From: Acidimicrobiia bacterium
GTDB lineage: Bacteria > Actinomycetota > Acidimicrobiia > UBA2766
NCBI GenBank assembly: GCA_019695375.1
Contig: JAIBAC010000001.1
Coordinates: 25,638 to 89,637 of the forward strand
Direction: 5' to 3'
DNA: 64,000 bases
How positions within the stretch are numbered: the stretch's first letter is position 1; every line of letters begins with the position of its first letter. Made by a program: the position numbers and the translations under genes. Below, piece by piece: positions 1 through 32,730 of this stretch. The notes below the pieces were generated by a model. The model ran no database searches and had not been told where the DNA came from. It was given only the letters and a program-made list of their open reading frames with translations.

Positions 1-231
1 ACACCGGTCGTGTGCAGCGACGACGCCGCTGTGCGCGAGGTCGCCGGGAGTGCCGCGCTGGTGGTCGGGTCGACTGATTCGGGGGCCTGGACCGCAGCGC
101 TGGGGTCGGTACTCGATGACGCGGCGGAGGCACGCCGCCTTGCGGAGGCCGGGCGGACGCGGGCCGGCGAGTTCGACTGGTCCCGCTGCGCGGCCGCCAC
201 GCTCGCCGTCTACCGCGCTGTGGCGCGGTAG
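1..231 (+). CDS. glycosyltransferase (group 1) C-terminal fragment, 5' end outside window
   Basis: In-frame ORF running from window edge to stop at 229-231; C-terminal region typical of GT-B glycosyltransferases; strong GC3 bias. Confidence 0.5.
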   Translation, partial: TPVVCSDDAAVREVAGSAALVVGSTDSGAWTAALGSVLDDAAEARRLAEAGRTRAGEFDWSRCAAATLAVYRAVAR

Positions 232-527
232 CGCCGGCGCAGGAGCGCGCCTACTTGCTCAGGTCGTTGACCTCGACGGCGAGGATCACGTCGGCGGGGA
301 TCATGATCGTGCTGCCGCCGCTGAAGAGCAGGTGCAGCCACCCTTCGTCCGTCTCGTACTCGGTGACCCTGCCGCGGTCCGAGCCGATGAACTGCGGACC
401 CATCTGGGGGTCCTTGAAGTGAACCGTGATGCGTTCGCCGCTCTCGAGCTTCTGCACGCGCTGGTCCTCGATTCCTCGTCGCTGTCGAGCGGGCGATGTT
501 ACCGGCGGCGTACGCCGCCGTGGGGGG

Positions 528-1742
528 TCATGTCGTGGCGGCCTCGACGCTGCCGCTGCGGCGCTTGAACCAGCGCGGCGGGAAGTCCCACCCCTCGCAA
601 CGGGCGAACACGGCCACGAAAGCCACGAGGATCGGGGTCGCGACGGCCGCGACGACCACCTGGCGCAGGATGATCGGCCAGCCGGTCAGGGTCGGCCACG
701 CCCCCACCCAGTGCACCGTCCACCACGCCAGCGAGTAGGCGAGCATGTGCCAGATGTAGATCGTGTAGTTGTTCGTCGCCATGTAGTCGACGAAGGGCCG
801 CACGCCCCGCACGCTCGAGAACCTCGTGAGCGACTCGCGTGCCCAGACGAGCAGGAGCATGGCGGCGCTGCCCCCCATCAGGTACGCCGCCGTGGGTGGG
901 AACTGGTTGCCGTCGTTGGCGGTCCCGAAGAGGTAGTCGGGGTAGGGGCCCGCGACCATGACCACGGTCGCGAGCGTGCAGACCGCGGCGCCGGGCAGGA
1001 GCCAGCGCCGCACCTTCTCGTACTCGCGGTCGATGTAGAAGAACCCGATGTAGGCGAAGAACGTCCACGTGGTCAGGATCCGCGCGAGGAGGAGCAGCGG
1101 TAGCCCTCCCAGCACCTTCTGGCCCAGGTCGCACGCGAGCGTCGTGCCCGCGAGCAGGACGGGGAACAGGTACTTGAGGCGCCTGCGCTGGTAGATGCGG
1201 GCGGCCCCCGGCATCACGAGCGTGATGAACATCAGCGCCGTGAGGAACCAAAAGGGAGCCTGCGTCACCCCGAGGCAGTCGAAGTGCGGGTACGGCATCA
1301 CCCACGAGAGCGCCTTGAGCGGGTTCATCGTGAACCACATCTCCGTGCTCCGGAGTGCGGGGTCGCCGCAGGCGCCGACCTTGGCCGCCCACAGCGTGAG
1401 CTCGAGCACGACCATCACGGCGGCGAACACGAAATAGGGGATCAGGAGTCGCTTGAAGCGGCGCGCGTAGTAGGTGCGCACGGACCCGAGGGCGCTCTTC
1501 TTGCTCAGCGCCCCCACCATCCCGAACCACATGGGCATGACGAACACGAGGATCCACGACATCCACGGCGCCTGGAAGTACCTGTCGATCCCGATCGAGT
1601 TGAGCCCGTTGTCCTGTACGACGAGGAAGAACCAGTGCGCGACGACGACGAGGAAGATCATCAGCGCCTGCGAGAACGTGACGAAGCGGTCCCGTTCGCG
1701 TGGCGGTGAGGACACGGCGGGCAGGTCGGGCGTTGCAGTCAT
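528..1742 (-). CDS. acyltransferase 3 family integral membrane protein
   Basis: Multi-TM protein with acyltransferase_3-like hydrophobic profile; start chosen at ATG 1742 (MTATPDLP...) inside longer ORF 528..1817. Confidence 0.7.
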   Translation of the reverse strand: MTATPDLPAVSSPPRERDRFVTFSQALMIFLVVVAHWFFLVVQDNGLNSIGIDRYFQAPWMSWILVFVMPMWFGMVGALSKKSALGSVRTYYARRFKRLLIPYFVFAAVMVVLELTLWAAKVGACGDPALRSTEMWFTMNPLKALSWVMPYPHFDCLGVTQAPFWFLTALMFITLVMPGAARIYQRRRLKYLFPVLLAGTTLACDLGQKVLGGLPLLLLARILTTWTFFAYIGFFYIDREYEKVRRWLLPGAAVCTLATVVMVAGPYPDYLFGTANDGNQFPPTAAYLMGGSAAMLLLVWARESLTRFSSVRGVRPFVDYMATNNYTIYIWHMLAYSLAWWTVHWVGAWPTLTGWPIILRQVVVAAVATPILVAFVAVFARCEGWDFPPRWFKRRSGSVEAATT

Positions 1743-1780
1743 CGGCGCGTACCTTCCGCCACCACCCCGGGATCTCCTGC

Positions 1781-1903
1781 CCCCGACGTGGGGACGTGAA
1801 ACGCCCTCACACACCACTTCGCGTCCCCACGTCGATGCCGACCCCCGACGTGGGGACGTGAAACGCCCTCACACACCACTTCGCGTCCCCACGTCGATGC
1901 CGG
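1781..1903. repeat. two perfect tandem copies of a ~62-bp unit, each containing a 13-bp inverted repeat (CGACGTGGGGACG / CGTCCCCACGTCG) around a 25-nt loop
   Basis: Direct reading: unit 1781-1841 repeated 1843-1903; intergenic between lipoprotein stop (1911) and acyltransferase start (1742). Confidence 0.9.
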
Positions 1904-1910
1904 GGGCACG

Positions 1911-2375
1911 TCAGCGGGCGGTGCCGAGCTCAGCGGAGCACTGTTCGGCCGCCTTCTGCACGGCCGGGTCCTGCGCGAGCTGAGCGAGAGCGGCTTCGTC
2001 GTAGGAGACCCGCCCACCGGAGTCGACGTTGGGCGACGGCACGGCGATCCCCTTGGTGCGCAGGCAGTCCACCATCGCGTCGATGGAGGCATCACCTCCG
2101 CTGCCCGACGACGACTTCGACGACGGCGAAGAGGGCGACGACGAGGACGAGGACGACGGCGGCGGCGAACCGGAGCGGTTCGTGGGCGCCGGCTGGACCA
2201 GGGTCGACGCGGCCGTGGTCGTGGTGTTGATCACCTCGACCGGAGTCCCCGGTTTCGTGGTGGTGGTGACCGGTTCCGCCCCCAACCGCCCGTCCGGGGC
2301 CGCTCCGCACGCGGCGGCCGCGAACACCGCTGCGAGCCCCAGCGCCAGCCCGGCCGCGGCACGCCCCCGGCTCAT
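1911..2375 (-). CDS. putative lipoprotein with poly-Ser/Pro linker
   Basis: N-term MSRGRAAAGLALGLAAVFAAAACG has signal peptide plus Cys lipobox-like; Ser-rich low complexity; ATGA overlap with upstream HAD gene. Confidence 0.6.
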   Translation of the reverse strand: MSRGRAAAGLALGLAAVFAAAACGAAPDGRLGAEPVTTTTKPGTPVEVINTTTTAASTLVQPAPTNRSGSPPPSSSSSSSPSSPSSKSSSGSGGDASIDAMVDCLRTKGIAVPSPNVDSGGRVSYDEAALAQLAQDPAVQKAAEQCSAELGTAR

Positions 2376-2965
2376 CGGACCCACACCGCGTGGCTGGCGG
2401 CCTCGAGGAGATCGGAGTCGCCCGCGGAGTCCCCGTAGGCCCAGAGCTCGACCGCGTCGACGGACTCGCCCAGCCACTCCTCGAGTCGTGCGACCTTCGC
2501 GGGCCCGCGCACGTTGCCGCCGGCCATGACCCCGGTGAGCACCCCGTCGCGCGCCTCCAGTTCGACTGCGCAAACGCCGTCGAAGCCGAGCGCGGCACCG
2601 ACATGGCGCAGGTAGACGTCGAGCGAGGCGGACACGACCACCAGCTCGTCCCCGCGGCGGCGATGCTCCTCGACGCGGCCGACCGTGTCAGCGCGCAGGC
2701 GGCGTTGCAGGATCTCGGTCGCGAACTCCGCTCCCATCGCCTCGACGTCGACGGCGCTGCGACCGCGCAGGACGCGTGCGAAGACCGCCGCCTTCAGCTC
2801 GTCACGGCTCGTACGCCCCGTGGCGACCCCGAGCAGGCGCGGGAGCTCGGCGGCCATGGCGGCCAGGAAGCGCCACACGCCCGCGACCCGCACCAGGAAC
2901 GGCACGAGGCAGTCGCGCTTGCTCAGCGTCCCGTCGAAGTCGAACGCAGCAACGTGCCGTGGCAC
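2372..2965 (-). CDS. HAD-superfamily hydrolase (HAD-IB / phosphoserine-phosphatase-like)
   Basis: N-terminal DFDGTL motif (FDFDGTLS), C-terminal GDSAGD motif; sits immediately downstream of dprE2. Confidence 0.75.
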   Translation of the reverse strand: MPRHVAAFDFDGTLSKRDCLVPFLVRVAGVWRFLAAMAAELPRLLGVATGRTSRDELKAAVFARVLRGRSAVDVEAMGAEFATEILQRRLRADTVGRVEEHRRRGDELVVVSASLDVYLRHVGAALGFDGVCAVELEARDGVLTGVMAGGNVRGPAKVARLEEWLGESVDAVELWAYGDSAGDSDLLEAASHAVWVR

Positions 2966-2972
2966 CGCGACC

Positions 2973-3743
2973 TCAGATCGGCAGGCGGCGGAACACGGCG
3001 CGGGGCATGTGACGCAAGCCGCTCATCACCCACCGGAACAGGGGCGGCGCCCACACGATCTCCTTGCCGGTGGCGACGCCTTCGACGATGATCCGCGCCA
3101 CGTCGCCGGCATCGACGGCGAGCGGTGCAGCAGCCATGCCGGCCGTCATCTTGGTCTTGACGAAGCCAGGCCGCACGATCAGCACCCGTGCACCGGTGCC
3201 CTGCAGGCGGTCCTGAAGCCCCTGGGCCACGTAGTCGAGGCCCACCTTGGACGCGCCGTAGACGAAGTTCGACCTGCGCGGTCTCTCCGCCGCTGCCGAC
3301 GACATCACGACCGCGGTGCCGTGGCCTTGCTGCTCGAGGCGGTTCGCGATCGGCATCAGCAGCGAAACCGCTCCCGTGAGGTTCGTTCGCAGTTCGGCGA
3401 GGGCGGCTCGTGCATCGCGGGAGTTGCGGTCCTGGTCGCCGAGCACACCCCAGGCGAGATGGACGACGTCGAAGTCGCCGTAGTGGCCGAACACGCCGTC
3501 GACGAAGCGCTGGTGCTCGTCGGGGTCTGCCCACGCGTCGAAGCCCACGACCTCGGCCGTGGCGGCGCCGGCGGCGCGCAGCGCGGCCGCGTTCTCCTCT
3601 GCCGCGGCCTTGTCGCTCTCGAGGGCCGCGAGGACGACGACGCGGGCTCCGCGCTCGACGAACGCGAGCGCCGTGGCGCGGGCGATGTCGGATGCTCCTC
3701 CGAGGACGAGGAGCGAGTCGACTTTGCCGAGGGCGTCTTGCAT
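2973..3743 (-). CDS. dprE2: decaprenylphospho-2-keto-ribose 2-reductase DprE2-like short-chain dehydrogenase
   Basis: SDR Rossmann motif GGASDIARA, 256 aa, immediately downstream of DprE1 homolog as in mycobacterial Rv3790-Rv3791. Confidence 0.8.
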   Translation of the reverse strand: MQDALGKVDSLLVLGGASDIARATALAFVERGARVVVLAALESDKAAAEENAAALRAAGAATAEVVGFDAWADPDEHQRFVDGVFGHYGDFDVVHLAWGVLGDQDRNSRDARAALAELRTNLTGAVSLLMPIANRLEQQGHGTAVVMSSAAAERPRRSNFVYGASKVGLDYVAQGLQDRLQGTGARVLIVRPGFVKTKMTAGMAAAPLAVDAGDVARIIVEGVATGKEIVWAPPLFRWVMSGLRHMPRAVFRRLPI

Positions 3744-3776
3744 GGCTGTGTCTTCCGATCTCGGGTCGGGGACGGG

Positions 3777-5144
3777 TCAGACGAGGCGGAGCCTGCGTGC
3801 GAGGTCGGAGCGCATGACCCCGTCGGGATCGAGCTTCGCGCGCACCTCACGCCAGCGGTCCAGCTCTGGGTACATCGCCGCGAACACGTCGGGGTCGACG
3901 CGGCTGTCCTTCGCCAGGTAGATGCGCCCACCGGCTGCGAGCACGTGCTGGTCGAGCTCGTCGAGCATCGCGGCGAGGCCACGGGTGCGTGTGGGGATGT
4001 CGAGGGTCAGCGTCCATCCCTCCATCGGGAAGCTGAGCATCCCCGCGTTCGCGCGCCCGAAGCGCTTGAGCACCGTCACCGGCGATGCGGCACCGCCGTG
4101 GGCGAGGCGTTCCACGGCATACCGGACCGTCGCCTCGGCCCCGAACGGCACGACGAACTGGTACTGCAGGAACCCGCGTGGCCCGTAGAGGCGGTTCCAG
4201 TCCGTGACCCCGTCGAGGGGATGGAAGTACGCGGGCACGGATTCGACGGCGGTTCGCGGGTTGCGCGGCGATTTCGTGTACCACGCCCAGTTGAACGCGC
4301 CGATCGAGAAGCGGTTGACGACTCCGACCGGCAACGGCGGCACCTGCACGCGCTCGGGGGCCGAGTAGTCGAGCGGCTCGTGCCGTCGCGCGGGTTCGAG
4401 GTCGTCGAGGCGCGTGTGCTCTGCGTGCATGAGGATCCCGCGCCCGAGGTTCGCTCCCGTGGCCAGCGAGTCGAACCAGGCCACCGCGTAGCGGTGACCC
4501 GCGTCGGTGGCCTCCATGGTCTCCATGAGCTCGTCCAGATGCGGGATCCGCCGCGTGGCGACGGTCATGTAGGCGGTTTCGACGGGGACGAGCTGCAGCA
4601 CAGCACGGGTCACGATCCCCGTCAGCCCCATCCCACCCGCCGTCGCCCAGAACACCTCCGGGTTGGTCGCGGCCGAGACCCCGGTGTAGGTGCCCGATGG
4701 TGCGAGCAGGTCGAACGAGACGACGTGGTCGCAGAAGCTCCCGTCGACGTGGTGGTTCTTGCCGTGGATGTCGGCGGCGATCGCGCCGCCGACGGTGACG
4801 TTGCGGGTGCCTGGCAGCACCGGCGGGAACCAACCGTGGGGGATGACGAGCTCCATGAGCTTGTCGAGGCCGAGGCCGGCGTCGACCTCCACGACGCCGG
4901 TCTCCCAGTCGGCGGCCACGGCGCAGTCGAGGCTCGTCATGTCGACGACGGCGCCGCCGGCGTTCTGAGCGGCATCGCCGTAGGAGCGCCCGAGCCCGCG
5001 GGCGATGATCCCACGCGGCCCGGCGGCGGCTAGTGCGCGCGAGACGTCGTCGCCGACGGCCGGCAGCACGACATCGGCACCTGTCGGGACGGTGCGGCCC
5101 CAGCCCGAGAGCGCGCGGCGCCGCGAGGCGGCCTCACTTGACAT
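3777..5144 (-). CDS. dprE1: decaprenylphosphoryl-beta-D-ribose oxidase DprE1 (FAD-linked)
   Basis: 455 aa FAD-binding PCMH-type oxidase; N-term LSGWGRT motif and overall similarity to DprE1 family. Confidence 0.85.
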   Translation of the reverse strand: MSSEAASRRRALSGWGRTVPTGADVVLPAVGDDVSRALAAAGPRGIIARGLGRSYGDAAQNAGGAVVDMTSLDCAVAADWETGVVEVDAGLGLDKLMELVIPHGWFPPVLPGTRNVTVGGAIAADIHGKNHHVDGSFCDHVVSFDLLAPSGTYTGVSAATNPEVFWATAGGMGLTGIVTRAVLQLVPVETAYMTVATRRIPHLDELMETMEATDAGHRYAVAWFDSLATGANLGRGILMHAEHTRLDDLEPARRHEPLDYSAPERVQVPPLPVGVVNRFSIGAFNWAWYTKSPRNPRTAVESVPAYFHPLDGVTDWNRLYGPRGFLQYQFVVPFGAEATVRYAVERLAHGGAASPVTVLKRFGRANAGMLSFPMEGWTLTLDIPTRTRGLAAMLDELDQHVLAAGGRIYLAKDSRVDPDVFAAMYPELDRWREVRAKLDPDGVMRSDLARRLRLV

Positions 5145-6159
5145 ACAGGCCCACCGCGAAACAGCCGAGCCACACGAGCCCGATCACCTGCAGCATGCGG
5201 TCGCCGAGGATTACCTCCTCGGGCGCGCCGCCGCGACCCTGGTCGCACACCATCGCGTACCGGAACAGGGCGAGCAGGAACGGCGCGATCGAGAGCTGGA
5301 ACCAGATGGCACCGCCGATCTCGTCGGCGCGCTCGAAGGCCCACAGGCAGTAGGCGGAGATGCAGACCGCGGAGGACACCGTGCGCATGTGGTTGAGGAG
5401 GTCGACGGAGTAGTCCGCGAGGGCGGCTCGCGTCTTGGTGGCGGAGTCCTCACCGACGTCGTGCAGTTCGGCGCGCCTCTTGGCGACGACCATGAACAAC
5501 GATCCGAACGAGGTCACGATGATGAACCACTGCGAGATCGGCACTCCCGTCGCGACGCCGCCTGCGAGGGCGCGCAGTATGAACCCGGCGGCGACCACCG
5601 CGATGTCGAGCAGCGCGATGTGCTTCATCCAGATGCTGTAGTTCAACGTCAGCGTCAGGTAGACGGCGATCACGACGCCGAGCTGCCACGTGCCGAAGCC
5701 AAACGCGAGGCCGACAGCGGCGGCCATGAGGCCGACTCCCACGGTCCAGCCCAGCCACAGCGGCACGATGCCTGCGGCGATCGGCCGGTGCCGTTTGCGC
5801 GGATGGTGGCGGTCGGCGTCGACGTCACGTGCGTCGTTGACGAAATACGTGCCCGACGCAGCGAGCGAGAAGACGACGAACGCGAGCACTGCGTCCACGA
5901 GGACGTCGCGGTCGAGCAGCATCCCGGCGGCTCCGGGCGCCGCGAACACGAGGACGTTCTTGACCCACTGCTTGGGGCGCGCTTCTCGCAGGAGGCCGCC
6001 TGCGAGTGTGTCCTTCCACGTCCGCGCCGTCTCGGGCCGGGGTGTGGCGGGGACACCCGCCACGTCGACGTCGGGGGCGGTGTCGGTGGTCATGGGGTCA
6101 TCGGGGGGCGGCGCGGGCTGGTCGCGGTGCGAAGGTGGCTTCGGCACCGGCGAGTTCAT
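5134..6159 (-). CDS. decaprenyl-phosphate phosphoribosyltransferase (UbiA prenyltransferase family, Rv3806c-like)
   Basis: UbiA-family membrane protein with NDxxDxxxD motif (FVNDARDVDADRHH); start set at ATG 6159 (AGGA-like RBS), alternative ATG 6093. Confidence 0.75.
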   Translation of the reverse strand: MNSPVPKPPSHRDQPAPPPDDPMTTDTAPDVDVAGVPATPRPETARTWKDTLAGGLLREARPKQWVKNVLVFAAPGAAGMLLDRDVLVDAVLAFVVFSLAASGTYFVNDARDVDADRHHPRKRHRPIAAGIVPLWLGWTVGVGLMAAAVGLAFGFGTWQLGVVIAVYLTLTLNYSIWMKHIALLDIAVVAAGFILRALAGGVATGVPISQWFIIVTSFGSLFMVVAKRRAELHDVGEDSATKTRAALADYSVDLLNHMRTVSSAVCISAYCLWAFERADEIGGAIWFQLSIAPFLLALFRYAMVCDQGRGGAPEEVILGDRMLQVIGLVWLGCFAVGLYVK

Positions 6160-6184
6160 GTCCTGCCCGTGCTCGCCGGCGCGT

Positions 6185-7252
6185 TCACAGCCCGAGCCGT
6201 TCGGCGACGACTTCGAGGTCGGGTGCGACTGCGTCTGGCACCGCGATCTCCTGCACGACACGGTCGGGGTCTTTGAGGCCGTGACCCGTGAGCGTCGCGA
6301 CGATGACCGCATCCGCGGGCACTTCGCCACGTCCTGCCTTCTGCAGCAGCAGGGCGACACCGGCCGCCGACGCCGGCTCGCAGAACACGCCTTCCGTGTC
6401 GGCGAGGAGGCGGTAGGCGGCGAGGATCTCGGCGTCGGTCACGGATTCGATGGTGCCGCCTGAGCTGTCACGGGCGTCGAGCGCACCCTGCCACGACGCC
6501 GGGTTCCCGATGCGGATCGCTGTCGCGATCGTCTGCGGGCTCGCAACCGCCTCGCCGCGCACGATCGGCGCGGCGCCGGCAGCCTGCGCACCCCACATGG
6601 CAGGACGGTCCGGCCCGTCGAGGCCGGCCGTCTCGTACGCCTCGACGGCTTCGGTGTAGCCGAGCCAGGCTGCCGTTATGTTGCCTGCGTTGCCGACGGG
6701 CATCACGTGCACGTCCGGTACGCGACCGAGGGCGTCGATGATCTCGAACGCGACCGTCTTCTGGCCCTCGATGCGAAGCGGGTTCACAGAGTTGACCAGT
6801 GCAACCGACTCGAGCTCACCGAGCTTGCGCGCGATCGTGAGGGCGTCGTCGAAGTTGCCCTCGATCGGGATAACGGTGGCGCCGTGGATGAGGGCCTGCG
6901 CGAGCTTGCCGAGCGCGATGTTGCCGTCGGGTATGACGACGCCGCATCGCAGACCCGCGCGGCACGCGTACGCGGCGGCCGACGCCGATGTGTTCCCCGT
7001 CGATGCGCACACGACCGCGCTGGCGCCGGTGGCAACGGCACCGCTGACCGCCACGCACATCCCGCGGTCCTTGAACGAGCCTGTCGGGTTCATGCCCTCG
7101 AACTTCAAGTAGAGGCGCGCCCCGATCCGGGCGCCGAGGCGCGGCGCAGGGATCAGCGGTGTGTCGCCCTCCAGCAGGGTGATCGCGGGCGCATCGGCGG
7201 GCAGGCGCGAGAGGCGGCCGCGGAACTCGTCCACCACCCCGCGCCAGGCCAT
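6185..7252 (-). CDS. thrC: threonine synthase
   Basis: PLP-binding motif FEGMNPTGSFKDRG; 355 aa; 1-nt overlap with hom stop. Confidence 0.9.
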   Translation of the reverse strand: MAWRGVVDEFRGRLSRLPADAPAITLLEGDTPLIPAPRLGARIGARLYLKFEGMNPTGSFKDRGMCVAVSGAVATGASAVVCASTGNTSASAAAYACRAGLRCGVVIPDGNIALGKLAQALIHGATVIPIEGNFDDALTIARKLGELESVALVNSVNPLRIEGQKTVAFEIIDALGRVPDVHVMPVGNAGNITAAWLGYTEAVEAYETAGLDGPDRPAMWGAQAAGAAPIVRGEAVASPQTIATAIRIGNPASWQGALDARDSSGGTIESVTDAEILAAYRLLADTEGVFCEPASAAGVALLLQKAGRGEVPADAVIVATLTGHGLKDPDRVVQEIAVPDAVAPDLEVVAERLGL

Positions 7253-8574
7253 CAGGCGTCCTCGTCGGCCACGACACGCATGACGGCGGCGACGTTCTCG
7301 ACGCCGTCGAGACCACCGGCGACGGCCACCGCGGCGTCGACGTCGGCTTCGCGTGAAGCGTGCGTGATCATCACGAGCTCGGCGTCGGCCTCGCGGCCTT
7401 CCTGCAGCACGCTCTTGAGCGACACACCGTGGTCGCCGAAAGCGCGCGCTATCTCGGCGAGCACTCCTGGGCGGTCTTCGACCTCGAGGCGCACGTAGTA
7501 CTGGCTCGTGGCATCGGCGCCGTCCTTGATGCCGTGCAGGGCACGCCGGGAAACGTGGGGGCCACGGGCACCCTGGCGCAGGTTCCTTGCCGCGTCGACC
7601 ACGTCTCCGACGACGGCCATCGCCGTCGGTCCCGCACCGGCGCCGTGGCCGTAGAACATCATGCGTCCCGCTGACTCGCCCTCGACGAAGACCGCGTTGT
7701 AGCTGAGCCGCACGTTCGCGAGCGGATGCGAGTCCGGGATCATCGCCGGGAAGACACGGGCGAGGACGGCGTCGGCGGCCTCGTCGTACTCGGCGACCGC
7801 GAGGAGCTTCACGACGTAGCCGAGTCGGCGTCCGAGCCCGAGGTCGTGCGCATCGATCCCACGGATGCCTTCGGTCGGGACGTCGGTGTCGTGCACCCGC
7901 GTCCCGAACGCGAGCGTCGCGAGGATCGCGGCCTTCTGTGCGGCATCGTGGCCGTCGACGTCGGCGCTCGGCTCGGCCTCGGCGTACCCGAGCGCTTGCG
8001 CGTCGGCGAGCACGGCGTCGAAGCCGGCACCCTCCTCGTCCATGCGCGTGAGGATGTAGTTCGTCGTGCCGTTGACTATTCCCATGACGCGGCGGACGTA
8101 CTCGCCTGCGAGCGTCTCGGTGAGCGGGCGGATGATCGGGATCCCGCCGCCCACCGACGCCTCGTAGAGGAGGTCGACGTTGGCGGCTCGTGCCTTGTCG
8201 AGGAGCGCGGGACCGTCGGCCGCCATGAGCGTCTTGTTCGCGGTCACGACCGGTTTGGACAGGTCGAGCGCCGCGGCCACGAGGCTGCCGGCCGGGTCGG
8301 TGCCGCCCATCACCTCGACGACGAGGTCGATGTCGTCGGCGGCGACGACGGCGGCAGGGTCGTCGGTCAGCACCGTGTCGGGCACCGGCAGGTCGCGTTC
8401 GACGCCGAGGTCGCGAACTGCGATGCGCACCACCTCGACGTCCACGCCCGAATAGCGCGTGATCGCCTCACGGCGCTGGGTGAGGATGCGAACCGATTCC
8501 GCTCCCACGGTGCCGCAGCCGAGGAACCCGACGCGGACGGTTGGCCCGACGTCGTCTGCCGATGCTGTTGTCAC
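7252..8574 (-). CDS. hom: homoserine dehydrogenase with C-terminal ACT domain
   Basis: N-terminal NAD-binding GCGTVG, catalytic domain motifs, C-terminal ACT (YYVRLEVEDRPGVLAEIA). Confidence 0.9.
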   Translation of the reverse strand: MTTASADDVGPTVRVGFLGCGTVGAESVRILTQRREAITRYSGVDVEVVRIAVRDLGVERDLPVPDTVLTDDPAAVVAADDIDLVVEVMGGTDPAGSLVAAALDLSKPVVTANKTLMAADGPALLDKARAANVDLLYEASVGGGIPIIRPLTETLAGEYVRRVMGIVNGTTNYILTRMDEEGAGFDAVLADAQALGYAEAEPSADVDGHDAAQKAAILATLAFGTRVHDTDVPTEGIRGIDAHDLGLGRRLGYVVKLLAVAEYDEAADAVLARVFPAMIPDSHPLANVRLSYNAVFVEGESAGRMMFYGHGAGAGPTAMAVVGDVVDAARNLRQGARGPHVSRRALHGIKDGADATSQYYVRLEVEDRPGVLAEIARAFGDHGVSLKSVLQEGREADAELVMITHASREADVDAAVAVAGGLDGVENVAAVMRVVADEDA

Positions 8575-8577
8575 CCT

Positions 8578-9612
8578 CTACCCCGCGAGATGGACGGAGG
8601 CGATCGCTACCGAGTCGCCCGTGCCGGCGAGCAGGCTACCGGAGACCCCGGTGGCGTCGACCTTCCATCCCTTGATCCGGAACTGAACTCCGTCGAGGTC
8701 GCCGTCGATGTACACGGCGTAGCCGCCGCCGTTCTCCGACAGGATGCCGACGCCGGCACCGCGGCCGCCCTCGCCCTGGGACATCGTGAGGGTCTTGTCG
8801 TCGGGTTTGGTGGGTGGGTTCCAGACGAGCGTCGACAGCAGCGACACGGCGGGCTCCAGCGGAGAGCCGGGCCCCGGTGCAGGCGAGATGGAGAGGACGG
8901 CGGCCGGACCCGTCGGGGGTGGCGGGGTCGCCGGCGTGGGGCCGGTGCGGACGACGGTCGCGCTGCCCTCGGCGCTGCACTTGCCGGCGCCTTCCTCGAC
9001 GTGCACGAGCCACGTGGGCAGGAGCGGCAGTTCGACCCAGTTGAACGTCAGGTTCGCGTCGATGCTGCTCGGAGCCGGCTGGTCTGGCGGCGTCTCGGGT
9101 GATGTGAGCCGCATCTCGATCGCTCGCTCCTCGATCGTCTGGATCACCGCTGTCGTCCTGAGCGTGTCCTTGGCACCACCGGTCACGCGGCCCACCCACG
9201 GCAGTGACTGGCTCACGTCGTCCGCGGTGCCGATCGCCATCGTCGAGCCCGTCTCGGACACGCGCAACTCGAGGCTCGACACGAAGGCCCGCACCGCTTC
9301 GACCTGGGGCGCGTCCACCGGGACCTCGGTCGTGTCGCCCTGGAAGCTCTTGGGGTCGAGGGGGTTCACGATCGCGAGCAGCTCGTCGAGTGAGCCCTTC
9401 ACGTCGATGCGGCACGCTGCGCTGGAGATGCGGACGCCTGTGAGCTGGTAGACGCCGCCGCCTGCGTAGACCCCCGACGCGGGCCGATCTCCGGTGTTCG
9501 TGACAGCGGTGTCGACCGGGCCGTGGATGCGGGTCTGCTCAGGATCGTTGACGCAGGCCGATGCCAGCACGCTGGCGGCGCAGATCACGACGACGGCGTG
9601 GGATGCCTTCAC
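8578..9612 (-). CDS. lipoprotein of unknown function, GTG start overlapping lysA stop
   Basis: Frame with strong GC3 bias starting GTG at 9612 (GTGA overlap with lysA TGA); N-term KASHAVVVICAASVLASAC signal peptide and lipobox; Pro/Thr-rich linker. Confidence 0.6.
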   Translation of the reverse strand: MKASHAVVVICAASVLASACVNDPEQTRIHGPVDTAVTNTGDRPASGVYAGGGVYQLTGVRISSAACRIDVKGSLDELLAIVNPLDPKSFQGDTTEVPVDAPQVEAVRAFVSSLELRVSETGSTMAIGTADDVSQSLPWVGRVTGGAKDTLRTTAVIQTIEERAIEMRLTSPETPPDQPAPSSIDANLTFNWVELPLLPTWLVHVEEGAGKCSAEGSATVVRTGPTPATPPPPTGPAAVLSISPAPGPGSPLEPAVSLLSTLVWNPPTKPDDKTLTMSQGEGGRGAGVGILSENGGGYAVYIDGDLDGVQFRIKGWKVDATGVSGSLLAGTGDSVAIASVHLAG

Positions 9613-10958
9613 CGCATCAGCCGCATCACGTCGTCGAGGCCCTCGCGGCGGATGACCACACGCGCGACGCCGTCGCGGGCGAACACGACCGCGGGCCGGC
9701 CGACGAGGTTGTAGTTGTTGGCCATCGCGTACCCGTAGGCGCCGGTCGCAGGCGTGACGAGCACGTCGCCGGCCCTGACGTCGGCCGGTAGGCGGGCATC
9801 GCTGACGAGCACGTCGCCGGACTCGCAGTGCTTGCCGGCCACGTCGGCCACGAGGTCGCGCGGCGCCAGCGGTCTGGCGGCGACGAGCGTCTCGTAGCCG
9901 GCGCCGTACAGCGCCGGGCGCAGGTTGTCGCTCATGCCGCCGTCGACGGCGACGTAGGTCCTGACGCCGGGGAGGTGCTTGATCGTGCCCACCGTGTAGA
10001 GCGTCACCCCCGCGCGGCCCACGAGCGCGCGACCGGGCTCGACGTAGACGACCGGATCGTCGAGGCCGGCTTCTGCCGCAGCCGTGGCCACGACGGATGT
10101 GAGCGCCGCGATCCAATCGGGAACCGCTACGGGCACGTCACCCGCCGTGTACGCGATGCCGAGCCCACCGCCGACGTCGAGCTCGCGCACCGGCGCGCCC
10201 ACGATCGCGCTCGCCTCGGCTGCGAACTGGACCAGTGCGGCGGCGGCCTCGCGGAAGCCGTCGAGGCCGAAGATCTGGCTGCCGATGTGGCTGTGCACCC
10301 CGACGAGCTCGAGTCCACGGCGGCCTGCGACGTCCTTCACCGCTTCGAGCGCCTGCCCGTTGGCCCAGCCGAAGCCGAACTTGGACTCCTCGTGGCCGGT
10401 GCGGATGTACTCGTGCGTGTCGGCGTCGACGCCGGGCGTCAGGCGGACGAGGACGTCCTGTGGTGGGCCACCGCCGTCACGCACCACGGCATCGAGGTTG
10501 TCGACGTCGTCGAAGGAGTCGAGCACGATCCGGGCGACGCCGGCAGCCCGCGCCGCCGCGAGCTCGGCGGGGGTCTTGTTGTTGCCGTGCATGACGAGGC
10601 GCTCGGGCGGGAAGCCTGCAGCGAGCGCGACGCCGAGCTCGCCGTCGGTGGACACGTCGAGCCAGAGTCCGCGCTCGGCGACGATGCGCAGCAGCGCCGG
10701 GCAGCTGAACGCCTTCGACGCATACGCGACGCGGCCTTCCAGCGGTGTGGGCGCCGCCGCGAACGCGTCGGTGAGCTCCGTGCAACGCGTCTCGATCGCA
10801 GCTTCGTCGTAGACGAACAGGGGTGTGCCGTGTTCGTGTGCGAGGTCCACGAGATCGCACCCCGCGATGCGGAGATGTCCGGCCGCGTCGACGCCTGCAG
10901 AGGGCGGCAGGACGTCTGCGAGTCCGGCGAGCTGCGCTGGCAGCGAGGTCGTGGTCAT
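9609..10958 (-). CDS. lysA: diaminopimelate decarboxylase
   Basis: 449 aa, PLP-dependent fold III decarboxylase motifs (YASKAF, HSHIGSQ, EPGRALVG, CESGD). Confidence 0.9.
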   Translation of the reverse strand: MTTTSLPAQLAGLADVLPPSAGVDAAGHLRIAGCDLVDLAHEHGTPLFVYDEAAIETRCTELTDAFAAAPTPLEGRVAYASKAFSCPALLRIVAERGLWLDVSTDGELGVALAAGFPPERLVMHGNNKTPAELAAARAAGVARIVLDSFDDVDNLDAVVRDGGGPPQDVLVRLTPGVDADTHEYIRTGHEESKFGFGWANGQALEAVKDVAGRRGLELVGVHSHIGSQIFGLDGFREAAAALVQFAAEASAIVGAPVRELDVGGGLGIAYTAGDVPVAVPDWIAALTSVVATAAAEAGLDDPVVYVEPGRALVGRAGVTLYTVGTIKHLPGVRTYVAVDGGMSDNLRPALYGAGYETLVAARPLAPRDLVADVAGKHCESGDVLVSDARLPADVRAGDVLVTPATGAYGYAMANNYNLVGRPAVVFARDGVARVVIRREGLDDVMRLMR

Positions 10959-11037
10959 TCCCGAAACCGTATCGGCTCGCAGCAGTGCCGCGAGAACAAC
11001 TTGCCCCGGCGCCGGCGGCGGCTACCGTCAGGGCACG

Positions 11038-12390
11038 ATGGCGGATCCCAAGATCACGATGGTCGGCGCCGGGGGGATGTCCTTCGGTCCCACGATGGTC
11101 AACGACGTGGTCCACACGCCGGCACTGCACGGCGCGCGCCTCGTCCTGCACGACCTGAACGCCGAGCGGCTCCAGCGCGCCTACCAGTTCGCGGCGAAGC
11201 TCAACGCCGCCGCGGGGGCGCCCGTCGTGCTGGACCGCACGACCGACCCTGCCGCTGCCTACGACGGAGCGGACTTCGTCTTCTCGAGCGCCGAGTTCGA
11301 GCGCTTCGCCCGCTGGCGCCAGGACCTCGAGATACCCAACGCGCACGGCGCACGTCAGCTCACGGGCGAGAACGGGGGCCCGGGAGCGGTCTTCCACTCG
11401 TTGCGCTCCATCCACAACACCCTCGGCATCTGCGCCGACATCGAACGGTTCTGCCCCGACGCGTTCCTGGTCAACCTCACGAACCCGATGAGCCGGGTGA
11501 CGCTCGCGATCAACCGCGGCACCAGCGTCCGCAACGTTGGGATGTGCCACGAGATGCCGATGGGCATCAACCGGCTGTGCCGCCGGCTCCGCGTCAAGCG
11601 CTCCCATGTCAGCGCCAAGGCGTCGGGCATCAACCACTTCACGTTCTTCACCGAGTTCGTCGACACCACGAGCGGCGAGGACCTCATGCCGCGGCTGCTG
11701 GACTTCTACACGAGCAGGTTCTTCGAGTTCGGCCCGATGGCGCAGCGTGTCGCGCACGCGTTGGAGAGCACGCTCGCCGGCGCCGCCCTCGTCGAGATGA
11801 ACTACCTGCCGCTCGTGGCAAAGGTCGCACGCGAGCACGGGCTGATCGCCGTATCGGTGGACAGCCACATCGGTGAGTACCTCCCCTTCGCCCTCGACGC
11901 CGCCGAGTGGATGCCGGTCCCGCTCGACTTCCACGAACCCGCCATGCGCGTCGCTGAACGCGCCGCGTCGTGGGCAGCGCGGACTCGCGTTCCTCTCCCG
12001 CTGCAGGCCTACGGCCACTCCAGCGAGGAGGTCGCGCCGCTCATCGCAGCGATCTGGACGGGTGAGCCCACTCGGATCCTGGCGGTCAACGTTCCCAACC
12101 GCGGCTACCTGCCCGATGTCGCCGACGGCGCCATCGTCGAGGTCGGCGCAACCGTCGACGGCGACGGCGTGCACCCGGAACGGATGCCGGCTCTCGGCGA
12201 GCCGCTCGCGGGGTGGATCGGCGTCCAGACCCGCCTGCAGGACCTCGTGGTGGACGCCGCGCTCAAGGGCGACCCCGACCTCGCTCTCCAGGCCGTCCGC
12301 GACGACCCCTGCTCACCGCCGGACGAGGAGTCGTGCCGGCGGATCTTCGACGAGCTGCGCGAGTTGCAGGCCGACCTCCTGCCCTTCTGA
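11038..12390 (+). CDS. glycoside hydrolase family 4 (NAD/Mn-dependent alpha-glucosidase-like)
   Basis: N-terminal Rossmann KITMVGAGGMSFG, conserved Cys-His region (MCHEMPMG) typical of GH4; start ATG 11038 inside longer ORF. Confidence 0.75.
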   Translation: MADPKITMVGAGGMSFGPTMVNDVVHTPALHGARLVLHDLNAERLQRAYQFAAKLNAAAGAPVVLDRTTDPAAAYDGADFVFSSAEFERFARWRQDLEIPNAHGARQLTGENGGPGAVFHSLRSIHNTLGICADIERFCPDAFLVNLTNPMSRVTLAINRGTSVRNVGMCHEMPMGINRLCRRLRVKRSHVSAKASGINHFTFFTEFVDTTSGEDLMPRLLDFYTSRFFEFGPMAQRVAHALESTLAGAALVEMNYLPLVAKVAREHGLIAVSVDSHIGEYLPFALDAAEWMPVPLDFHEPAMRVAERAASWAARTRVPLPLQAYGHSSEEVAPLIAAIWTGEPTRILAVNVPNRGYLPDVADGAIVEVGATVDGDGVHPERMPALGEPLAGWIGVQTRLQDLVVDAALKGDPDLALQAVRDDPCSPPDEESCRRIFDELRELQADLLPF

Positions 12391-12421
12391 CGGGCCGTCT
12401 CCACGGCGCTTGCCCTGGAGC

Positions 12422-12805
12422 TCAGCTGCGGCGCGCGGTGCTCCCGCGCAGCACCCCGGCGACTTGCAGTGCGAGGTCGCGCGGTTCGAACGGTTTCGTC
12501 ACATAGGTGTCGGCGCCGGCGGCGAGGCCGGCCGCCACATCCGCGGCCTGGGCGCGGGCCGAGAGCATCAGGATCCCGACACGGGTCGTCGCCGGCTCAG
12601 CCCGCAGCGACCTGCACACGTCGATGCCGTCGACGCCGGGCAGCATCACGTCGAGCACGACGAGCTCGGCGCCGATGTCGTGGGCCACCGTCACAGCGCC
12701 GAGGCCGCGGTCGACGACGGTCACCTCGTGGCCCTCGAGCTCGAGCGTGAGGCGCACGAGCTTCTGCACCGAAGGGTCGTCCTCGACGACGAGAATGCGT
12801 GCCAC
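12422..12805 (-). CDS. stand-alone response regulator receiver domain protein (CheY-like)
   Basis: 127 aa; ILVVEDD, LVVLDVMLPGVDG, TKPF motifs. Confidence 0.8.
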   Translation of the reverse strand: MARILVVEDDPSVQKLVRLTLELEGHEVTVVDRGLGAVTVAHDIGAELVVLDVMLPGVDGIDVCRSLRAEPATTRVGILMLSARAQAADVAAGLAAGADTYVTKPFEPRDLALQVAGVLRGSTARRS

Positions 12806-12906
12806 ACGGCCAGCCTACGGGGCGATCGCGACGCTGCAGACGCCGGCCGCGTCGTCCACCTCCGAGGCGTGGCGGCGACGGGTGGCGGTTACACTCGCAG
12901 GTCGTT

Positions 12907-12981
12907 GCCCTCGTAGCTCAGGGGATAGAGCACCGGCCTCCGGAGCCGGGTGCGGAGGTTCGAATCCTCCCGGGGGCGCCA
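12907..12981 (+). tRNA. tRNA-Arg (anticodon CCG)
   Basis: Hand-folded cloverleaf: acceptor GCCCTCG/CGGGGGC, D-arm GCTC AGGGGATA GAGC, anticodon loop CUCCGGA, T-arm GGAGG TTCGAAT CCTCC, discriminator G plus CCA. Confidence 0.8.
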
Positions 12982-13034
12982 GCGAAGCAGTGCCACGATC
13001 CTCTTGGTGAGCGGCTCGCCTCGAAGTCGACTTT

Positions 13035-25494: not shown

Positions 25495-25835
25495 GCGCCA
25501 TCGACACAGCTCTCACAGCACCAACGGCGCCGTGGACCATCGGGGGAAGGTCCACGGCGCCGTCGCGAACGCTTCGCCCGCCACCACCCGTCACGGCGGC
25601 GCCACCCGTCGAGGCGGCGTGACGCGGTCGCGTACCCTTGGGGCACAGGAATTGCCGACCGACCTGTGGAAGACTTCGGCGAGGCCAGAGGCATGGTGAC
25701 GCCCGGACTGTTGGGCCTTGGTGGGCGGGGACCGGATGTCACGACGCTCATGGCCGCCGCGTGGTGGGTCCCCCATCCCGCGCGGGTAGGTGGCGCGGTC
25801 CACCCTGGTGGGCCGGCGATTGCGAGGAGTGGCTA

Positions 25836-32040: not shown

Positions 32041-32046
32041 CGCCCG

Positions 32047-32174
32047 GCCCCACGCCAAACGCGGGCGGAATCGCCCGCGAGCACGTCAGACCACCCGCGT
32101 TTGGGGGACGGACCCACGCCAAACGCGGGCGGAATCGCCCGCGAGCACGCCAGACCACCCGCGTTTGGGGAGGT
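32047..32174. repeat. two tandem ~64-bp copies (1-2 mismatches) each containing 11-bp inverted repeat CCAAACGCGGG/CCCGCGTTTGG and nested GCGGGCG-GAAT-CGCCCGC hairpin
   Basis: Direct reading; located between pilX-like stop and major pilin start. Confidence 0.9.
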
Positions 32175-32301
32175 GGCCGCCCCGCGCGTTGGCGGGCGGG
32201 ATGGCAGGATCTGGGGCTCTCATGTAGAAATGCGTGACTGTTGGGTAGTGGGCTGAGTTACCTGGATCAGGAAGTCGACCCTTACTGGGGGAGAACCGGC
32301 G

Positions 32302-32724: not shown

Positions 32725-32730
32725 GGCGCG

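Follow-up and report, generated by a model that had tools for sequence, protein, structure and literature searches.

Gene organization of the locus

Nine densely packed genes were located on the minus strand at positions 1911-10958 of the 64-kb stretch of DNA analyzed here (the window). The enzymes were identified by Pfam and NCBIfam profile searches, and all of them scored above the curated NCBIfam equivalog cut-offs. The first gene of the block was lysA (9609..10958), which encoded a diaminopimelate decarboxylase of 449 aa (TIGR01048, 440 bits, cut-off 298; PF02784, PF00278). It was followed by lipoA (8578..9612), encoding a predicted lipoprotein of 344 aa, by hom (7252..8574), encoding a homoserine dehydrogenase of 440 aa with a C-terminal ACT domain (NF004976, 508 bits; PF00742, PF03447, PF01842), and by thrC (6185..7252), encoding a threonine synthase of 355 aa (TIGR00260, 287 bits, cut-off 167). 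The next gene was ubiA (5134..6159), encoding the DPPR synthase, a polyprenyl-phosphate 5-phosphoribosyltransferase of 341 aa orthologous to Rv3806c (NF008978, 384 bits, cut-off 207). Then came DprE1, an FAD-dependent polyprenylphosphoryl-ribose 2'-oxidase of 455 aa (3777..5144; NF053785, 595 bits, cut-off 500), and DprE2, an SDR-family 2'-keto reductase of 256 aa (2973..3743; NF053786, 300 bits, cut-off 250; PF00106). The block was completed by a stand-alone HAD-IB hydrolase of 197 aa (2372..2965; TIGR01490, 130 bits, cut-off 98; PF12710) and by lipoB (1911..2375), the last gene of the tight block, encoding a second predicted lipoprotein of 154 aa. Also on the minus strand, a tandem hairpin element in two copies lay directly after lipoB (1784..1896, from repeat and fold analysis), followed by an Acyl_transf_3 membrane acyltransferase of 404 aa (528..1742; PF01757, 70 bits; weak NolL-like match). 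On the other side, a divergent intergenic region of 79 nt (10959..11037) separated lysA from a GH4 glycosidase gene, as determined from L001 gene calls mapped onto the window and from GH4 Pfam matches. The original prediction, which had described nine co-directional minus-strand genes running from lysA-hom-thrC to the DPPR synthase, DprE1 and DprE2 with a HAD hydrolase and lipoproteins, was confirmed in coordinates and identities.

The junctions were read from the sequence. The lysA/lipoA pair overlapped by 4 nt, with GTG as the lipoA start, and lipoA and hom were separated by 3 nt. The thrC start lay on the hom stop with a 1-nt overlap. The gaps were 33 nt for dprE1/dprE2 and 7 nt for dprE2/HAD, and HAD and lipoB overlapped by 4 nt. 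Overlaps of 1-4 nt and gaps below 35 bp had been predicted throughout. The limit on the gaps held, with 33 nt as the maximum. However, ubiA and dprE1 overlapped by 11 nt, and the thrC/ubiA gap depended on the start codon, being 25 nt from the first ATG and 91 nt from the second.

The DPPR synthase gave 254 bits to the M. tuberculosis Rv3806c structure (8j8j) and retained the NDxxDxxxD motif. It contained seven hydrophobic segments and would be 319 aa long if started at the second ATG (6093). DprE1 gave 407 bits to M. smegmatis DprE1 (4aut), and the lysine of AKDSR was retained. The cysteine targeted by benzothiazinones (GWNVCVDFP) was replaced with threonine in the present protein (GWTLTLDIP).

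Amino acid genes at the junction

The order and orientation of lysA, hom and thrC were those of the canonical actinobacterial lysA-hom-thrC-thrB-rho string, and this order was retained in 30 of 80 metagenome thrC loci. The present locus differed from the canonical string in the lipoprotein gene between lysA and hom, and in the arabinose module, which followed thrC in place of thrB or rho. No thrB (GHMP kinase) was found at the locus or in any ORF scanned across the 64 kb. It had been proposed that the cell-wall genes replaced thrB. This was not borne out, because thrB was commonly absent after thrC in related loci: in high-GC metagenome sequences related to this one (L091, L099, L087, L127), rho often came immediately after thrC, so that loss of thrB alone from the canonical position occurred there too. 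Another related thrC locus (L098) carried a phosphoglycerate-mutase-type protein, which we take to be an alternative homoserine kinase. The missing thrB is thus ordinary by comparison of gene order, and what is specific to this locus is the lack of both thrB and rho after thrC.

The joining of amino acid genes to the arabinose module had also been called unusual. This was true only in comparison with mycobacteria. In 13 Ilumatobacteraceae-type loci, aroA abutted HAD-ubiA, and the aroA stop and the HAD start overlapped by 4 nt in nine of them. In the other four (L029, L030, L052, L085), the HAD start of the longest ORF lay from 43 nt before to 13 nt after the aroA stop. This aroA-joined module of another Acidimicrobiia group indicated that joining to amino acid operons recurs in the class.

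The HAD-IB hydrolase as a candidate phosphatase

In an alignment of 28 orthologues, the HAD motifs DFDGT, SAS, K156 and GDSxGD were invariant. The AlphaFold model had a pLDDT of 96.7, and its top PDB match was a HAD-IB protein (3fvv). The neighborhoods of 80 HAD orthologues in other genomes were examined, with one genome per species. At least one of ubiA, dprE1 and dprE2 lay within 10 kb in 56 loci and within 400 nt in 34, and all three were within 10 kb in 34. Of the 39 loci in which both flanks reached at least 9 kb, 29 showed the association. It was seen in several gene orders, including those of Proteobacteria (L051, L066). About 24 of the 80 loci had no ubiA or dprE gene in reach, and 10 of these had both flanks of at least 9 kb. 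The TIGR01490 family is broad, with copies of about 37% identity on 1,699 plasmids without evident arabinose context. Sampling from the UbiA side gave HAD within the cluster in two of four loci, while a third had a spaced layout that ended too early to tell. None of the four contained PAP2.

HAD-DPPR-synthase fusions were encoded on proteobacterial plasmids. The Cereibacter azotoformans protein WP_238823651 (498 aa) consisted of a PF12710 HAD domain and UbiA, and its gene was followed by GtrA, DprE1-like and DprE2-like genes. Its N-terminal domain was matched to the HAD family alignment by hhalign with 96.7% probability (E = 4e-10). Pairwise BLAST of the window HAD against the fused domain showed no similarity (E = 0.38), and the link was at the profile level only. 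Experiments by Kelly et al. (2024, PMC11127046) showed that a fused HAD domain strips the 5-phosphate from polyprenyl-phospho-ribose. When the HAD domain of C. youngae ORF15 carried the D18A mutation, farnesyl-P-ribose-5-P accumulated. The same mutant still gave some product, and the data suggest that DPPR dephosphorylation is partly bypassable (PMC11127046).

The HAD-IB protein had been proposed as a non-orthologous replacement for Rv3807c (PAP2). Neighborhood conservation, the HAD-UbiA fusion and the published biochemistry of the fused domain (PMC11127046) agreed with this proposal. No PAP2 was found within the 64-kb window, and the HAD orthologues were co-conserved with dpr genes. None of them reached the NCBIfam cut-offs for SerB, ThrH or HisN. 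A role of the HAD as a phosphatase was therefore well supported, with polyprenyl-phospho-ribose-5-phosphate as the predicted substrate. Since the fused phosphatase was demonstrated in 2024, the concept is already known, and Acidimicrobiia show a variant of it in which the HAD stands alone.

Two other functions were weighed against this assignment. The HAD-IB protein might serve amino acid metabolism, either as a ThrH-like phosphoserine:homoserine phosphotransferase that offsets the missing thrB or as a SerB- or HisN-type phosphatase, with the dpr adjacency being incidental. The locus lacks thrB, P. aeruginosa ThrH is itself a HAD-IB protein (1rku, among the structure matches), and weak NCBIfam matches to histidinol-phosphatase (62 bits) and SerB (30 bits) were obtained. 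In L016, moreover, the HAD lay directly after thrC, and no ubiA or dprE gene was present in the 15 kb available. However, the NCBIfam scores were far under the cut-offs (280, 400 and 144 bits), and the ThrH match was marginal (E = 2.8e-3; structure rank 32, TM 0.54). The adjacency to thrC was confined to one lineage, in contrast to the ubiA/dprE adjacency in most of the sampled loci. The genes after the L016 HAD, two for GT4 glycosyltransferases and one for the same acyltransferase, again point to a glycan setting. We consider a role in amino acid metabolism very improbable. It is also improbable that the HAD acts on lipid headgroups in general, for example as a PgpC-like phosphatidylglycerophosphatase, with the 5-phosphate of DPPR cleared by an unlinked enzyme. 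Many orthologues carry the JGI name 'phosphatidylglycerophosphatase C', and the partial bypass in the D18A mutant would fit such a function. However, the JGI name was assigned automatically, and this function leaves unexplained both the fusion to UbiA and the conserved, often translationally coupled placement by ubiA or dprE2.

Transcriptional organization of the block

We infer that all nine genes may be co-transcribed. The arguments for one operon were the overlaps and short gaps, the kept order, the strong tandem hairpin past lipoB and the lack of an internal terminator. No terminator-like site was found on the minus strand within the block, including the thrC-ubiA spacer. The same gene order was found in relatives whose HAD was 72-79% identical, and also in L174, whose lipoA was 78% identical. 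The 79-nt spacer between lysA and the GH4 gene is presumed to be the promoter region. No sigma-70 consensus was found in it, and Acidimicrobiia promoters would escape the scan used.

The thrC-ubiA junction was the least conserved of the block, and thrC was joined to the arabinose module in close relatives only. L167 and L174 had spacers of about 100 nt, and in L170 the two genes overlapped by 4 nt. A spacer of about 100 nt, as in the relatives, or of 91 nt, from the second ATG here, leaves room for an internal promoter.

The nine genes might instead be two abutting units, lysA-lipoA-hom-thrC and ubiA-dprE1-dprE2-HAD-lipoB, the latter possibly including the acyltransferase. The arabinose module would then be transcribed from a promoter of its own, within or close to the 3' end of thrC, and the adjacency would derive from the break-up of an ancestral thrC-(thrB)-rho string without regulatory meaning. 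The variable spacer between thrC and ubiA favors such a division, and the module sits in very different contexts elsewhere in the class, so that it behaves as a mobile unit. A promoter at this position would be missed by the same sigma-70 scan. However, the spacer was without terminator-like structure, and the junction was kept across several species, one of them (L170) with a stop/start overlap. In addition, the coupling of the module to aroA in a second lineage, mostly by a 4-nt stop/start overlap, argues for read-through. We regard two units as doubtful, although they retain an appreciable chance.

Predicted pathway and comparison with known systems

The locus is probably a lysA-hom-thrC string joined to a self-contained module for a polyprenyl-phosphate-linked D-arabinofuranose donor, in which the HAD is the non-orthologous counterpart of Rv3807c. 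The string would be a housekeeping actinobacterial one with a lineage-specific lipoprotein gene after lysA. The HAD would strip the 5-phosphate via the Asp nucleophile of the DFDGT motif, and would be the separately encoded equivalent of the 'phosphoribose phosphatase' domain that is fused to the same transferase in some Proteobacteria. DprE1 would oxidize the 2'-OH, and DprE2 would reduce the keto intermediate to the arabino configuration. The lipid-linked arabinose would presumably be flipped to the outside, where GT-C transferases encoded elsewhere may decorate an envelope glycan, and the downstream Acyl_transf_3 protein may acylate this glycan. Arabinose is the predicted end product, and the carrier lipid and the glycan acceptor are likewise predictions. 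No flippase or GT-C transferase was found in the 64 kb, so the use of the product was not seen.

The original prediction used a mycobacterial frame of comparison, although the host is an Acidimicrobiia MAG and does not belong to Corynebacteriales. It also placed the mycobacterial DPPR synthase and phosphatase at loci separate from dprE1/dprE2. In M. tuberculosis, Rv3806c/Rv3807c and dprE1/dprE2 (Rv3790/91) lie in one cell-wall region of about 30 kb. Three of the four enzymes of the mycobacterial DPA pathway (Rv3806c, Rv3807c, Rv3790, Rv3791) had clear orthologues here with retained catalytic motifs, and the same chemistry is predicted, from PRPP to lipid-linked Araf, a donor known chiefly from the tuberculosis cell wall. 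In contrast to the PAP2 membrane protein Rv3807c, the phosphatase candidate here is a soluble HAD-IB protein. The present locus also differed in the threonine of DprE1, in its host, and in having the four genes in one tight cluster joined to lysA-hom-thrC. Neither Emb/Aft-type transferases nor an Rv3789-type flippase was found in the window.

The three-component Gram-negative pentofuranose systems described by Kelly et al. (2024, PMC11127046) combine C. youngae ORF15, a HAD phosphoribose phosphatase domain fused to the phosphoribosyltransferase, with a flippase and a GT-C enzyme. The pairing is the same as here: a HAD-family phosphatase and a UbiA-type phosphoribosyltransferase give polyprenyl-P-ribofuranose, and DprE1/E2 are added where Araf is needed. 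ORF15 was likened by its published description, and the profile-level sequence match was with the related plasmid-borne Cereibacter fusion. Unlike ORF15, the HAD here is a separate TIGR01490 gene after dprE2, and neither the cluster nor the window carries the flippase and GT-C genes of these systems. Outside Corynebacteriales, homologues of DPPR synthase, DprE1 and DprE2 are also grouped compactly in the cluster for pilin D-Araf of P. aeruginosa (PsPA7_6245-6251) and in the rhizobial noe operon for arabinosylation. Unlike the present locus, the former encodes a homologue of Rv3807c (6245) as well as a GtrA-like protein. The noe operon of IRBG74 has a GtrA-family gene and no recognizable phosphatase. 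Neither is joined to amino acid biosynthesis genes, in contrast to the present locus. The present locus is thus genuine, but it departs only modestly from a pathway that is already known.

Lipoproteins and downstream region

Neither lipoA nor lipoB matched a Pfam or NCBIfam family. The lipoA signal peptide ended in VLASAC, consistent with the lipobox rule. Only eight homologues (70-100% identity) were found among 5.8 billion proteins, none with a name or Pfam domain, and the L016 copy was 31% identical. GC3 was 0.89, and third codon positions carried most of the differences from the L174 orthologue (125, against 50 and 38 at the other two), so that lipoA is a real coding gene. By these searches, it is lineage-restricted. 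In the case of lipoB, a signal peptide ending in AAAC was followed by a Ser/Pro-rich linker and a small C-terminal domain with two cysteines. A gene of 152-168 aa followed HAD in L167, L168 and L170, and the C-terminal 40 aa were 70% identical in L174.

The hairpin element consisted of two perfect tandem copies of 51 nt, G+C-rich, with a 62-nt period. Only these two copies were present in the window, with zero expected by chance. The fold of 1740-1915 had -95.4 kcal/mol (z = -3.4), and the element may be a transcript end or stabilizer. The tandem repeat was absent in relatives, where lipoB and the acyltransferase gene were 52 nt apart. The acyltransferase followed lipoB in L167-L169, and in L016 it was located 3 kb downstream of HAD; it is a conserved downstream neighbor and probably belongs to the same glycan locus. 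All six Logan contigs broke 38 nt past the lipoB stop, within the tandem repeat.

Gene organization of the block

Nine genes, marked by a strong GC signal at third codon positions, were located on the minus strand at 1911-10958 of the window, in which G+C content was about 70%. In reading order they were lysA (9609-10958; TIGR01048, 440 bits, cut-off 298), lipoA (8578-9612), hom (7252-8574; NF004976, 508 bits), thrC (6185-7252; TIGR00260, 287 bits, cut-off 167), the UbiA-type DPPR synthase gene ubiA (5134-6159; NF008978, 384 bits, cut-off 207), dprE1 (3777-5144; NF053785, 595 bits, cut-off 500; PF01565), dprE2 (2973-3743; NF053786, 300 bits, cut-off 250; PF00106, SDR fold), a HAD-IB hydrolase gene, here called HAD (2372-2965; TIGR01490, 130 bits, cut-off 98), and lipoB (1911-2375). 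Each enzyme with a stated cut-off scored above it, which agreed with the identities originally assigned. The junctions were overlaps of 4, 1, 11 and 4 nt and gaps of 3, 25, 33 and 7 nt, and no terminator-like site was found on the coding strand within the block. The tight nine-gene arrangement of the original prediction was thus confirmed, but two of its details changed. The overlap of ubiA with dprE1 was 11 nt, longer than had been described, and the gap between thrC and ubiA was 25 nt from the first ATG of ubiA or 91 nt from the second.

The two predicted lipoproteins had no family match. Both carried a signal peptide, with lipobox-like ends of A-S-A-C in lipoA and A-A-A-C in lipoB. Judged from its sequence, lipoA is a real gene, because its GC3 was 0.89 and the differences from an orthologue were concentrated in the third base of codons (125 differences; 50 and 38 in the other two bases). 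A search of 5.8 billion proteins gave eight close lipoA orthologues, all from the same lineage, and no function emerged from it.

At the head of the block, a response-regulator gene overlaps the lysA start on the same strand in relatives (L168, 95-1854; L174, 8227-9998). Here (10825-12805), an oppositely oriented GH4 glycosidase gene separates the regulator (12422-12805) from lysA, and the operon head was therefore rearranged. An Rfam scan of positions 1-13000 found no riboswitch or leader; the sole match was a tRNA at 12907-12978.

Enzymes of the arabinose pathway

The sequences of the UbiA-type synthase, DprE1 and DprE2 indicated that they are orthologues of the mycobacterial pathway enzymes, and catalytic motifs of Rv3806c and DprE1 were kept. 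The UbiA protein gave 254 bits to the Rv3806c structure 8j8j. Its NDARDVDAD aligned to NDVRDVEAD of Rv3806c, so the Asp-rich NDxxDxxxD motif was retained, and seven hydrophobic segments in a crude scan indicated a polytopic membrane topology. DprE1 gave 407 bits to the M. smegmatis enzyme (4aut), with a FAD_binding_4 domain and the catalytic lysine of AKDSR. In contrast to mycobacteria, in which a cysteine occupies the benzothiazinone site (GWNVCVDFP), the window protein has threonine there (GWTLTLDIP). Cys387 of DprE1 is the site of the benzothiazinone adduct and is not needed for catalysis. This replacement bears on drug sensitivity and not on family membership, and it predicts natural insensitivity to benzothiazinones. 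The HAD protein described below is 100% identical to one from an NCBI 'MAG: Acidimicrobiia bacterium'. Since the host is a member of Acidimicrobiia and not a mycolate actinobacterium, gene order in mycobacteria serves as a remote comparison.

The HAD protein as a candidate DPPR 5-phosphatase

The motifs DFDGT (the DxDxT nucleophile loop), SAS, K156 and GDSxGD were invariant in all 28 HAD orthologues compared. The predicted model (pLDDT 96.7) had a Rossmann-like HAD-IB fold with a helical cap. Its closest solved structures were the uncharacterised protein 3fvv (top, TM 0.84) and then SerB enzymes. Its motifs and predicted fold are those expected of an active HAD phosphatase.

The gene neighbourhood was examined in 80 loci obtained by a HAD-alignment scan with one genome per species, and neighbours were counted by tblastn with the window proteins. 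The loci were mostly from Acidimicrobiia, with some from Proteobacteria, Chlamydiae and Verrucomicrobia. At least one of ubiA, dprE1 and dprE2 was within 10 kb of HAD in 56 of 80 loci and within 400 nt in 34; all three were present in 34. Where each flank was at least 9 kb long (39 loci), 29 had a ubiA or dprE gene nearby. Among the gene orders were ubiA-dprE1-dprE2-HAD and HAD-ubiA-(methyltransferase)-dprE1-dprE2; Microthrixaceae/Iamiaceae-type loci had a spaced arrangement, and Proteobacteria (L051, L066) had dprE1-dprE2-HAD-ubiA. When four loci were sampled from the UbiA side, HAD was within the cluster in two, and a third, with the spaced layout, was too short at its end to decide. No PAP2 was present in any of these four.

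Fusion proteins gave a further line of evidence. A plasmid of Cereibacter azotoformans encodes a 498-aa protein with a PF12710 HAD domain followed by a UbiA domain, and genes for a GtrA-family protein, a hypothetical protein, a DprE1-like protein and a DprE2-like protein lie 3' of it. A similar fusion was found on a Sphingomonadaceae plasmid (the two fusion loci are L172 and L173). The uncharacterised N-terminal domain of the Cereibacter fusion matched the HAD alignment at profile level (96.7%, E = 4e-10, 156 columns). The similarity was seen only at that level, as pairwise BLAST with the HAD protein gave E = 0.38. In an NCBIfam search, the HAD protein did not match NF006088 at E <= 0.01. A fused enzyme of this type has been studied biochemically in C. 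youngae. The N-terminus of its ORF15 is a HAD 'phosphoribose phosphatase' domain, and the D18A nucleophile mutant releases farnesyl-P-ribose-5-P and not farnesyl-P-ribose (Kelly et al., PNAS 2024; PMC11127046). According to the same authors, Rv3807c has no relationship to HAD enzymes of this type (PMC11127046).

The motifs and predicted fold, the neighbourhood (56/80 loci), the HAD-UbiA fusions and the published ORF15 D18A result point together in one direction. Because of this combination, the best explanation is that the stand-alone HAD protein is the phosphatase of the module, for which it is a well-supported candidate. The proposal that a HAD-IB enzyme replaces the PAP2 phosphatase non-orthologously was therefore well supported. 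The idea is not new in concept, since it already exists in fused form. Within the 64-kb window, no PAP2 domain was detected among the approximately 65 ORFs scanned, so that none stood beside the DPPR synthase. A regular-expression scan for PAP2 motifs in the window and the 80 loci also gave no match, but it missed the annotated PAP2 of L173 that served as positive control, and it was discarded as invalid and carries no evidence.

Other functions were considered for the HAD protein. Since thrB is missing, it could be a ThrH-like homoserine phosphotransferase that makes up for the loss, and one locus of Acidimicrobiia UBA2766 (L016, 8813-14964) favours this, as HAD directly follows thrC there and ubiA, dprE1 and dprE2 are absent from the 15 kb available. 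However, HAD in that locus is followed by two GT4 glycosyltransferase genes and the same acyltransferase as in the window, which is a glycan context. In addition, no NCBIfam model named ThrH was among the HAD matches at E <= 0.01, and the ThrH structure 1rku matched only marginally (E = 2.8e-3). Either the three genes were moved or lost in L016, or they were inserted in the lineage of the window. An identity as SerB or histidinol-phosphatase was also considered. The SerB score was 30 bits against a cut-off of 144, and HisN-type models gave 62 bits (cut-off 280) and 46 bits (cut-off 400), all far below. A SerB-like protein that is not co-conserved with dprE genes, which had been named among the observations that would speak against the phosphatase, was thus not what was found: scores were below the cut-offs and 56/80 loci were co-located. 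JGI labels many HAD orthologues as 'phosphatidylglycerophosphatase C', which would make the protein PgpC, but this label is automatic and leaves the gene neighbourhood unexplained.

In the rhizobial arabinosylation operon noeCNHOP, published work has assigned the role of DPPR phosphatase to noeN, and this gene was checked as a possible HAD. In the Rhizobium/Agrobacterium IRBG74 plasmid (L175, 3416-8256), noeN is by gene order the GtrA-family gene, and it was rejected as a precedent for HAD. Its family suggests that it is more likely a flippase than a phosphatase, and no recognisable phosphatase was present in the IRBG74 operon. Removal of the 5-phosphate can be partly bypassed, according to published work on ORF15 (PMC11127046) and the rhizobial operon. 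Proteins about 37% identical to HAD were found on 1,699 plasmids of a plasmid collection (Klebsiella 1,119, Escherichia 224, Pseudomonas 129), where they were annotated only as HAD-IB hydrolase.

Junctions to amino-acid operons

In L167-L170, which are close relatives with HAD 72-79% identical, the full order lysA-lipoA-hom-thrC-ubiA-dprE1-dprE2-HAD-lipoB was kept, and thrC and ubiA of L170 overlap by 4 nt. The same order was found in L174 (GCA_046331095.1), with lipoA 78% identical. In more distant Acidimicrobiia the module was located in other genomic positions. Thirteen Ilumatobacteraceae-type loci (L008, L023, L029, L030, L045, L048, L052, L054, L061, L063, L064, L074 and L085; ~8650-10650 in most) had the order ScpA-ScpB-pseudouridine synthase-tyrA-aroA-HAD-ubiA. 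In nine of these, aroA and HAD share 4 nt at the stop/start junction. For the other four (L029, L030, L052 and L085), the HAD start called from the longest ORF fell between 43 nt ahead of the aroA stop and 13 nt beyond it. From the thrC and aroA junctions together, it followed that the module was joined to the tail of an amino-acid operon at least twice in the class. Such repeated joining points to constitutive housekeeping expression and not to a specific metabolic link; it suggests growth-coupled expression, as for an essential envelope component. The proposed co-transcription with amino-acid genes, which had been described as unusual, fits the tight minus-strand block, but it would be less exceptional than claimed given the aroA joining in 13 loci. 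The original observation was real, and its interpretation was right in part.

A baseline for thrC was obtained from a metagenome scan with ThrC, which gave 80 loci, distant only (<=65% identity, mixed phyla) and with no close relatives. The order lysA-hom-thrC was common, and ubiA, dprE or HAD genes were found in none of the 80. The canonical unit is lysA-hom-thrC-thrB-rho, whereas in the window ubiA follows thrC in place of thrB and rho. Among the comparison loci, L164 has a GHMP kinase and then Rho 3' of thrC, and L148 and L095 likewise have a GHMP kinase after thrC. In L091, L099, L087 and L127, Rho directly follows thrC without thrB. L098 (9041-10240) has a cofactor-independent phosphoglycerate-mutase-like protein after thrC, which we take to be of an alternative homoserine kinase type; if so, thrB would have been displaced in that locus by a non-orthologous gene. 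The existence of thrB-less loci in this set means that the absence of thrB here is ordinary. Neither a GHMP kinase (thrB) nor a Rho domain was found anywhere in the 64-kb window, and the window is distinguished by having neither thrB nor rho after thrC. Thus, the absence of thrB from locus and window held, but its replacement by cell-wall genes was stated too strongly, because thrB-less thrC loci are ordinary.

These results did not overturn current understanding. Their main use is that they yield a prediction open to test, namely that Acidimicrobiia make lipid-linked D-arabinofuranose with a stand-alone HAD-IB phosphatase, and the module predicts envelope glycans containing D-arabinofuranose in this class. 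It is quite possible, if not quite probable, that the lipid-linked D-Araf pathway is a core housekeeping trait of Acidimicrobiia, thrC-joined in one lineage and aroA-joined in another, which would imply an undescribed Araf envelope polymer outside mycolate bacteria, and that the TIGR01490-type stand-alone HAD is a general DPPR 5-phosphatase outside Corynebacteriales. If this is true, a large HAD family annotated as 'hypothetical' gains a function for some of its members. Through this module, a pathway that is a major tuberculosis drug target (DprE1, DprE2 and UbiA) is extended to an actinobacterial class that is abundant and poorly cultured. The soluble, separately encoded HAD is a candidate, tractable to study, for 5-phosphate removal, the least well understood of the steps. 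Literature searches found neither DprE1 together with Acidimicrobiia nor arabinose in whole-cell sugars of Acidimicrobiia.

Transferase candidates and glycan-related neighbours

In the three-component pentofuranose system, a flippase and a GT-C transferase are encoded alongside the lipid-donor synthase, whereas the window is without both. No flippase of GtrA, SMR or MATE type was found in the 64 kb, and hydrophobicity profiles of all its ORFs showed no GT-C transferase. A 554-aa gene 3' of HAD in L174 was considered as GT-C and rejected, as it encodes another lipoprotein. Large proteins without a confident Pfam match flank the dpr cluster in other Acidimicrobiia. One of them, a 663-aa protein adjoining dprE2 in L030 (14396-16384, minus strand), has at least eight hydrophobic segments, a soluble C-terminal part of about 200 aa and a faint PF10131 match. 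It is a candidate GT-C arabinosyltransferase, and its family also occurs in L048, L061, L063, L067, L070 and L085; tblastn found no homologue in the window. Flanking proteins of 441, 442 and 564 aa were found in L171 and L177, the latter also with a GT87 gene. The large flanking proteins and the L177 GT87 are candidate transferases, none with a homologue in the window.

Pilins of P. aeruginosa are glycosylated with D-Araf via donor genes homologous to the module. A type IV pilus set (PilB, PilC, a 698-aa PilX_N-like protein, an N-methyl pilin and PilT) is present at 25638-33765, about 15 kb from the module. No TfpW-like polytopic transferase was found in the window, and a link between the pilus set and the module is unsupported.

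Beyond lipoB, a membrane acyltransferase gene (Acyl_transf_3, PF01757) lies at 528-1742 on the minus strand. The acyltransferase gene also directly follows the block in L167-L169; it is a conserved neighbour of the module and probably belongs to the same glycan locus. SucT (Rv1565c), the mycobacterial arabinan succinyltransferase, is of the same family, which hints that the putative glycan with arabinose may carry acyl groups. The interval between lipoB and the acyltransferase holds a 51-nt G+C-rich hairpin element in two perfect tandem copies with a 62-nt period (1784-1896, minus strand), and the window has no further copy. Positions 1740-1915 gave a fold of -95 kcal/mol, and all six Logan contigs, which are independent short-read assemblies, break inside the repeat, 38 nt past the lipoB stop. 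The repeat is absent from L167 and L168, in which 52 nt precede the acyltransferase. On the other side of the block, a GH76-family glycosidase gene at 17597-18751, 7 kb upstream of lysA, is kept in L174. We take GH76 to be an alpha-1,6-mannanase family, and this gene may indicate a mannan-type envelope polymer.
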